Shown here piece after piece: positions 2,012 to 2,347 of a DNA stretch of 8,398 nucleotides. How positions within the stretch are numbered: position 1 is the first letter of the stretch; the number at the start of each line of letters is the position of its first letter. The stretch comes from a virus. Taxonomy: Monodnaviria > Loebvirae > Hofneiviricota > Faserviricetes > Tubulavirales > Inoviridae. The notes under the pieces were generated by a model that was not told the origin of the DNA, did not search any database, and was given only the letters and a program-made list of their open reading frames with translations. The stretch is taken from IMG/VR virus record IMGVR_UViG_2603880148_000001, one strand, 5' to 3'. The position numbers were made by a program, and so were the translations under genes.

Positions 2012-2200
2012 CTATTTTTTTTGTGTAATTTCATTTTTCGAAATCATATCTTGTTTTGCATCGTTTAAATATTCATCTATCAGATAATTCACGATCTCCG
2101 ACCATTTTGTGACTTTTCCTGTTTTGGCTGTGATATCTACGGCTGCTCTTTCTATTCTCAGATATCTCTCGTTGCTTATACCAATACTTTTCCTGCTCAT
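2012..2200 (-). CDS. Small DNA-binding regulator, ribbon-helix-helix-like (candidate phage repressor, RstR position)
   Basis: 62-aa minus-strand ORF, divergent from the rep gene. SD-like GGGAGAA about 6 nt upstream of the ATG on the minus strand. Pattern resembles RHH proteins of the ParD/CopG/Arc type: short beta-strand KSIGIS, helix NERYLRIERAAVDITAKTG, G-K-V-T turn, second helix KWSEIVNYLIDEYL. Function is inferred from fold pattern and position only. Confidence 0.6.
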   Translation of the reverse strand: MSRKSIGISNERYLRIERAAVDITAKTGKVTKWSEIVNYLIDEYLNDAKQDMISKNEITQKK

Positions 2201-2233
2201 TTTTTGTTCTCCCGTTCTTTTGGCTTAGTTTAA

Positions 2234-2322
2234 TGCAACATAGCAAAATTGCATTTGTGCACAATTGCACTTGTGCATCTGGTTTTTTTGTGTATTATTT
2301 TTGCAAGTTTGCACAATTGCAC
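2234..2322. promoter_or_regulatory. Iteron-like operator/promoter region between divergent regulator and rep genes
   Basis: TGCA(A/T/C) pentamers start at 2234, 2250, 2258, 2266, 2274 and 2302, 2310, 2318 (8-bp phasing; degenerate AGCAA at 2242). Exact 13-bp direct repeat TGCACAATTGCAC at 2258-2270 and 2310-2322, 52 bp apart. Candidate sigma70 elements: TTGTGC (2271-2276), 16-bp spacer, TATTAT (2293-2298). Confidence 0.5.
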
Positions 2323-2347
2323 GCGGATAAAGCATTTGGGGGGATTA

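Follow-up and report, generated by a model that had tools for sequence, protein, structure and literature searches.

This locus raises the question of what purpose is served by a series of short, regularly spaced boxes in the intergenic region between a small minus-strand gene and the divergent replication gene of a filamentous prophage. The small gene (2012–2200, minus strand; WP_032237689.1 as annotated by PGAP) encodes a 62-aa protein and is preceded by a Shine-Dalgarno sequence that can be read from the sequence as GGGAGAA (2207–2213, minus strand), 6 nt before the ATG. The replication initiator gene (2348–4348, plus strand) encodes an HUH endonuclease of the Phage_GPA family (Pfam PF05840, 7e-49; phrog_91, 9e-129).

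The window (i.e. the whole 8,398-bp stretch of DNA that was analysed) starts with the E. coli genes hipB (1–267) and hipA (to 1589), and the chromosomal homology, which is common to about 3,800 complete E. coli genomes, stops at position 1679 inside a dif-like site, after which the sequence is that of a filamentous (inovirus) prophage. Besides the replication gene, this prophage encodes a Zot-like assembly ATPase, and in the matching genome (L001) a secretin gene comes next. The protein of about 140 aa in the position of the ssDNA-binding gene matched phrog_30648 (unknown function) and the Pfam family G5P at sub-threshold level only, while the small coat-size ORFs and the Gly/Ser-rich ORF in the adsorption-protein position yielded no family matches. 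The attachment region is CTXphi-like (1666–1759), with inverted dif-like sites (1666–1693 and 1732–1759) flanking a perfect 14-bp GC-rich hairpin (1696–1709 and 1721–1734), and the stop of homology within the dif core (1679) is consistent with a folded single strand having been integrated by XerC. Between this region and the small gene lies an unannotated, hydrophobic 56-aa minus-strand ORF (1765–1935), located in a block that is 90% conserved in the related contigs L030 and L031, and a plus-strand terminator-like hairpin with a T run (1956–1971) is found just past the stop codon of the small gene. An Rfam search revealed no family in 2012–2347, and weak hairpin matches only in the attP region.

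A script run on the intergenic sequence located TGCA cores in 8-bp steps at positions 2234, 2250, 2258, 2266 and 2274, with an AGCA at 2242 filling the register, so that six consecutive 8-bp units make up a first box cluster (2232–2279; proposed operator O1). A second set of TGCA cores at 2302, 2310 and 2318, embedded in TTGCAA (2301), TTGCAC (2309) and TTGCAC (2317), makes up a second cluster (2301–2322; proposed operator O2) that is out of 8-bp register with the first, the distance from 2274 to 2302 being 28 bp. What is conserved in each unit is a hexamer, (T/G)TGCA(C/A/T), after which 2 bases vary, and the spacers between the cores are 4 bp long and AT-rich (ACAT, AAAT, TTTG, CAAT, CTTG, AGTT and CAAT). 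Cluster 1 as a whole forms an imperfect palindrome around a central GTGCAC (2257–2262). The exact 13-mer TGCACAATTGCAC, comprising two boxes and their spacer, has two plus-strand copies (2258–2270 and 2310–2322) at a spacing of 52 bp. A repeat search additionally revealed a 22-nt direct repeat (2249–2270 and 2301–2322; 86% identical) and palindromic arms, and Tandem Repeats Finder called the array as a period of 16 with 2.2 copies at 2243–2277. The 8-bp phasing of TGCA in two clusters and the exact 13-mer recurring after 52 bp, as reported in the preliminary description, were thus borne out by the sequence and by the shuffles described below, with the qualification that one core is AGCA. Its equation of 52 bp with five helical turns holds descriptively, equivalent boxes being 52–54 bp apart in relatives, but promoter geometry is an equally possible cause of this spacing.

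The array clearly exceeded chance expectation. An 88-bp stretch holds 8 of the 37 TGCA of the entire window, and none of 100,000 composition-preserving shuffles of 2201–2347 contained at least 8 TGCA (the maximum being 5) or a chain of at least 4 TGCA at 8-bp spacing. Moreover, no other phased TGCA array occurs in the matching E. coli locus (L001), which spans 24.9 kb. Given their palindromic nature, the boxes and the following T run (2257–2289) might form an intrinsic terminator, or the two clusters might pair in ssDNA as a minus-strand origin. A terminator-like scan match (2257–2278) is indeed followed by a T7 run, and the arms 2250–2269 and 2302–2321 are 85% complementary, although this complementarity is an automatic by-product of the cores being self-complementary. 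However, the RNA hairpin reached just –12.3 kcal/mol (z –1.5), with 21 of 200 shuffles folding as well, the ssDNA fold was no better than that of shuffles (z +0.58), and the T run is missing from some relatives. We consider a structural role of this kind highly improbable.

Attention was also given to the product of the small gene. The 62-aa protein matched phrog_2503 ('unknown function') with an E-value of 1e-28, and no Pfam or NCBIfam family above threshold. A HMMER scan of 1.84 billion representative proteins retrieved only 60 clusters at E ≤1e-3, the phrog_2503 family comprising about 60 clusters at 50% identity, and blastn of 1590–2450 against the phage collection yielded no matches, so that relatives were reached only by protein-level searches. 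The AlphaFold2 model (based on a 49-sequence alignment; pLDDT 95) shows residues 1–9 extended, followed by two helices (10–27 and 33–61) with a short loop in between, and a single-sequence structure model has the same topology. Since a strand followed by two helices is the topology of a ribbon-helix-helix (RHH) monomer (i.e. an N-terminal strand and two helices within about 45–60 residues), we conclude from these models that the fold of the 62-aa protein is RHH. In the models, which are of monomers only, the N-terminal strand displays an alternating R3-K4-S5-I6-G7-I8-S9 pattern with basic residues before it. An attempt to assign the base-contacting residues gave several weak candidates, none of them convincing.

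At the sequence level, the 62-aa protein resembles solved RHH proteins only weakly, and chiefly in helix 2. The best PDB match of three family profiles was always ParG of plasmid TP228 (E 0.008–0.05, mainly over helix 2), and hhalign gave a probability of 78–86% against a ParG sequence that agrees with the fragments in the HMMER output. The Pfam ParG family matched 3 out of 26 relatives, with E-values of 0.015 or worse and therefore below threshold, and the score with curated RHH families was insufficient for a match. The earlier label 'RHH-like regulator' is consequently supported by fold topology and by structural likeness to solved RHH proteins, but not by a curated RHH family match. Within the family, sequence variation is greatest in the ribbon segment (mean pairwise identity of 0.35, versus 0.41 for helix 1 and 0.51 for loop and helix 2), although the notion of a ribbon much more variable than its scaffold is only modestly supported by these values.

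The ParG match is of interest in light of how this protein binds DNA. ParG recognizes degenerate ACTC tetramer boxes, in either orientation, that always have 4-bp AT-rich spacers between them and each bind one dimer; eight such boxes lie just downstream of the –10 element, and cooperativity is mediated by the helical scaffolds (PMC3413123). The same report describes that CopG reads TGCA/GCAC cores, and that RHH ribbons are portable specificity elements that can be grafted to change specificity (PMC3413123). The array upstream of rep has the ParG-type arrangement, with 4-bp cores 8 bp apart and invariant 4-bp AT-rich spacers at or near the candidate promoter. By analogy with ParG on its OF operator and parH centromere (PDB 1p94), the 62-aa protein, as a similarly small RHH protein, might bind such direct or inverted boxes with one dimer each and coat them cooperatively. 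Unlike ParG, however, it is paired with a palindromic TGCA core instead of ACTC and with two clusters separated by a 28-bp gap, has no ParF partner or long flexible N-terminal tail, and would serve phage immunity instead of plasmid partition. CopG (pMV158), the omega repressor (pSM19035) and MetJ with its met-boxes are more distant, in that no significant sequence similarity to the 62-aa protein was found, their repeats differ in spacing and number, and their regulatory targets are plasmid copy number or metabolic genes.

The comparison of related prophages was most informative on what the boxes belong to. Relatives of the 62-aa protein that are 77–83% identical were found in Sodalis, Photorhabdus and Providencia, sharing the N-terminal strand RKS(I/L)GI(S/T), and their upstream regions carry TGCA cores at 8/16/24-bp steps in two clusters. 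The adjoining Rep is of the Rep_trans type in Sodalis and Photorhabdus, and of the Phage_GPA type in Providencia. In a fourth relative (75% identical; metagenomic contig L015, with a Rep_trans), just one TGCA pair is left, at a distance of 8 bp. Alignment of the six relatives with this TGCA-associated regulator type (referred to as type A) revealed that the hexamers TTGCAC/TTGCAA are kept while the 2-nt linkers vary. The position of cluster 1 is kept in relatives, and the cluster 2 boxes lie 36–38, 44–46 and 52–54 bp from the last cluster 1 box in all six.

The same Rep was also found behind other regulators. The IMG/VR contigs L030 and L031 match the window with 90% identity at 1660–1937 and with 94% identity from 2349 on, and the 410 bp between these conserved flanks has been replaced, the sole alignable part being a 73% patch inside the regulator gene. 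The exchangeable module thus spans 1938–2347, and comprises the regulator 3′ flank, the regulator gene and the intergenic, putative operator region. The element is rare in E. coli: while 39 of 5426 complete genomes have this Rep gene, only 7 have this module. The type B regulator in L030 and L031 (MKRKAIAITESTY..., MKRKAIAITE..; 53% identical) is accompanied by GTTAAC-like boxes at 8-bp steps, and the type C regulator (MKKETKRGDTTVRINEDRK..., MKKETKRGDTTVRINE..) by GCATGCG boxes. In complete E. coli genomes both types precede Rep genes that are 90–99% identical at the DNA level, and in blastn the homology between type B and the window breaks at the Rep start codon. A common layout of n boxes, a 28-bp gap and 3 boxes nevertheless links types A (TGCA) and B (GTTAAC), whose cores are unrelated.

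These swaps bear directly on the possibility that Rep (Phage_GPA) binds the boxes as iterons or origin elements for rolling-circle replication. Their location immediately upstream of rep would suit such a role, and short phased repeats are typical of initiator sites. The sequence of iterons should, however, co-vary with the initiator, whereas TGCA is kept when Rep is Rep_trans, and GTTAAC or GCATGCG is found when the Rep DNA is nearly the same. The repeats follow the regulator and not Rep, making iterons extremely unlikely. Another possibility is that a host protein, such as LexA or a nucleoid protein, and not the phage protein occupies the array, given that the CTXphi rstA promoter is co-regulated by LexA. 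Nevertheless, no LexA-type box is present in the window with one mismatch allowed, and among prophages of one host species, E. coli, the box sequences change along with the phage regulator; we give a host factor hardly any credence. Comparison across related prophages therefore supports the main reading of the preliminary description, i.e. a multi-site operator of the regulator, and disfavours the origin-associated iterons that it offered as an alternative.

Two further observations concern the type B and type C loci. In E. coli L071 (832–1199) and L074 (700–1199), an intact type B regulator gene (60 aa, MKRKAIAITESTY...) was left unannotated by PGAP. Furthermore, the type C regulator is adjoined by a second small minus-strand ORF (WP_033808723.1, MPTKHINDVL...; L071 374–562 and L075 583–771), the N-terminus of which resembles the rstR-calc primer translation MATKHIKDST, suggesting that the dif prophages of E. 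coli may have a further short type of RstR.

If the boxes constitute an operator, they should be positioned with respect to a promoter. A candidate –35 hexamer of the rep promoter (TTGTGC; 2271–2276, plus strand) overlaps the last cluster 1 boxes and is followed 16 bp further by a candidate –10 hexamer (TATTAT; 2293–2298, plus strand). In the alignment of type A relatives, the –35 position is taken by TTGACT, TTGAAC, TTGCGT or TTGTGC, directly after the last cluster 1 box, and an AT-rich –10-like element occurs at the equivalent place. Since consensus-based promoter scanning of the intergenic region gave no sigma-70 call, not even at the candidate –35, these assignments rest on weak hexamers and on the alignment. 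Relative to this candidate promoter, cluster 2 would correspond to approximately +1 to +18. Several weak candidates for a leftward regulator promoter were examined as well, none of which was convincing. As to the start of translation, PGAP places the rep start at TTG 2336. However, types B and C have an ATG exactly where the window has GTG 2348, a Shine-Dalgarno sequence GGGGGG (2338–2343, plus strand) is located upstream, and the homology between immunity types begins there, suggesting that GTG 2348 is probably the true rep start.

The organisation of the locus parallels that of rstR/ig-2 in CTXphi, as the preliminary description had noted for the rstR–rstA switch, and this parallel was upheld by the divergent layout, the exchange as a unit and the existence of RstR homologues. 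In both systems, a small (here presumed) repressor gene is divergent from the replication gene, with an allele-specific operator (proposed here) in the intergenic region, and the cassette is exchanged as a unit between otherwise near-identical phages, giving a heteroimmunity that is likewise proposed for the present prophages. More specifically, tblastn revealed homologues of 38–45% identity, which CTXphi and pre-CTX records label RstR ('environmental RstR', ACV95544) and records of the Vibrio phages VAI1 and VAI2 label 'RstR-like'; all of them are divergent from rstA. On the other hand, Rep is of the Phage_GPA type here, as opposed to RstA (Rep_trans), the window revealed neither a LexA box nor an RstC-like antirepressor, and the classical RstR-ET and RstR-class alleles are genes of 336–339 bp. 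Moreover, the classical RstR proteins are helix-turn-helix and not RHH proteins. Our literature search found no paper linking RstR to the ribbon-helix-helix fold.

The rstR-6 allele (AF452586) is a 192-bp gene (PMC11509585), and its primers encode MKKKYTSLRV, a ribbon that also occurs in the family of the 62-aa regulator. Judged from primer translations and gene length only, RstR-6 is a probable member of this family. RstR-6 was reported to bring its cognate ig-2 promoter down from 2.18e5 to 1.94e4 light units, a drop of about 11-fold that it did not cause in the other ig-2 promoters, with the other seven RstR alleles leaving the rstR-6 ig-2 promoter at 2.6e5–3.8e6 (PMC11509585, Table 2), and allele-specific repression and superinfection immunity were reported for eight rstR alleles, including rstR-6 (PMC11509585). 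A probable family member thus has reporter evidence for allele-specific repression. This also matters for the idea that the 62-aa protein binds the boxes yet acts mainly as a ParG-like centromere/segregation factor, or as an activator of the replicative form, instead of as a repressor. Its closest solved-structure sequence relative is indeed ParG, which binds a centromere and an operator composed of the same boxes. However, the prophage has no ParA/ParF-type partner gene, the boxes cover the –35 and the +1 of the presumed rep promoter in the manner of the ParG operator, and RstR-6 represses its promoter, so that either main role appears improbable.

The 8-bp periodicity was then considered at the level of the family, using 47 distinct regions upstream of family members that were collected from phage records and IMG/VR. 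Over these 47 regions, 4-mer self-matches peaked at lag 8 (249) and amounted to 156 and 97 at lags 16 and 24, with most other lags yielding about 35–65 (the short lags 1–2 being higher) and a control stretch inside rep yielding 21 at lag 8. The phased core differs by ribbon group, and includes TGCA, TTAAC, TCAC/GTGA, GCATGC, CATACATG and others. Since several groups (KKETKRGDTTVRINENRK, MRKDTSVRING and If1-like) display little lag-8 signal (z <1.5), the 8-bp array is common in the family without being universal.

Some of these family members stand out in other respects. In phage If1 (L008, U02303), the 'major intergenic region' contains an unannotated 67-aa regulator homologue of 41% identity (2474–2677), adjoined by two further ORFs (147 aa and ORF348). 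In Providencia rettgeri CP093260 (L012, 3790–4545), the regulator is adjoined by a TIR-domain gene (PF10137, CAP12-PCTIR_TIR) that possibly represents defence cargo. The Providencia rettgeri prophage is present twice, about 21 kb apart, and the Sodalis relative is duplicated too.

Because the array is beyond chance, is unique in the prophage, follows the regulator and not Rep, and is part of a family-wide 8-bp signal, and because ParG and RstR-6 provide precedents, the comparisons point to the repeats being, most likely, the operator through which a small RHH repressor shuts off the replication gene. This reading builds on the repeats themselves, the fold class, the conservation of the boxes and their co-variation with the regulator, all of which were shown here. 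We consider it quite likely that 1938–2347 constitutes the immunity (lysogeny control) module of a dif-integrated filamentous prophage, in which the RHH repressor and its TGCA boxes shut off rep.

From comparison and homology, we infer that DNA binding, cooperativity, promoter positions, repression and autoregulation would be organised as follows. Two N-terminal strands (about residues 3–9, RKSIGIS) would pair into a ribbon, with each dimer reading one TGCA-centred box in the major groove and neighbouring dimers 8 bp apart touching through their helical scaffolds, leading to cooperative coating of the DNA at 2232–2279 and 2301–2322. The two clusters would bracket a weak sigma-70 rep promoter, with the six boxes of cluster 1 covering the rep –35 region and, probably, the leftward promoter of the regulator itself, and the three boxes of cluster 2 covering the rep start site. 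Occupied boxes would keep Rep off, and in turn stop episomal replication and virion production, while an incoming phage with the same boxes would be blocked. The regulator probably represses its own gene as well. As specificity would reside in the ribbon/box pair, we propose that the whole cassette can be exchanged between phages, leading to heteroimmune types.

In a broader form of this proposal, to which we assign an even chance of being correct, the phrog_2503 family might represent a natural 'portable ribbon' immunity code of filamentous phages of Enterobacterales and Vibrio. A conserved helical scaffold would determine both the 8-bp dimer spacing and the 28 bp between the clusters, while swaps of the ribbon together with its 4–6-bp core (TGCA, GTTAAC, GCATGC, TCAC and others) would make heteroimmune lineages, including the short CTXphi rstR alleles. 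Sequence alone would then suffice to assign immunity groups. This kind of switch is already known, but the family had not been described in this way before, and the known principles (the ParG, omega and CopG operators, and rstR/ig-2 heteroimmunity) are extended and not overturned. The analysis provides a testable operator and a fold assignment for a small 'hypothetical protein' that would control the replication of filamentous prophages integrating at dif in E. coli and relatives, and links the family of this 62-aa protein to short rstR alleles of the cholera-toxin phage. The natural cassette swaps would in turn show how filamentous phages diversify their immunity. In practical terms, immunity types might become predictable from ribbon and box, and orthogonal ribbon/box parts could be of use for RHH-based synthetic repressors.

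The same phage backbone was also encountered with an unrelated gene in front of rep. In L072 (NZ_CM128598) and L073 (NZ_AP043644), of which the Rep DNA is ~99% identical to that of the window, a gene for an IS110-family (RNA-guided) transposase (224–1195) ends 2–3 nt before the Rep start, and replaces both the regulator and the dif-type attP. These prophages are located at the hcxB locus, and the transposase looks like an alternative integration module on this backbone. In about two dozen further genomes, the Rep matches begin at query base 3 or 6, as they do in L072 and L073.
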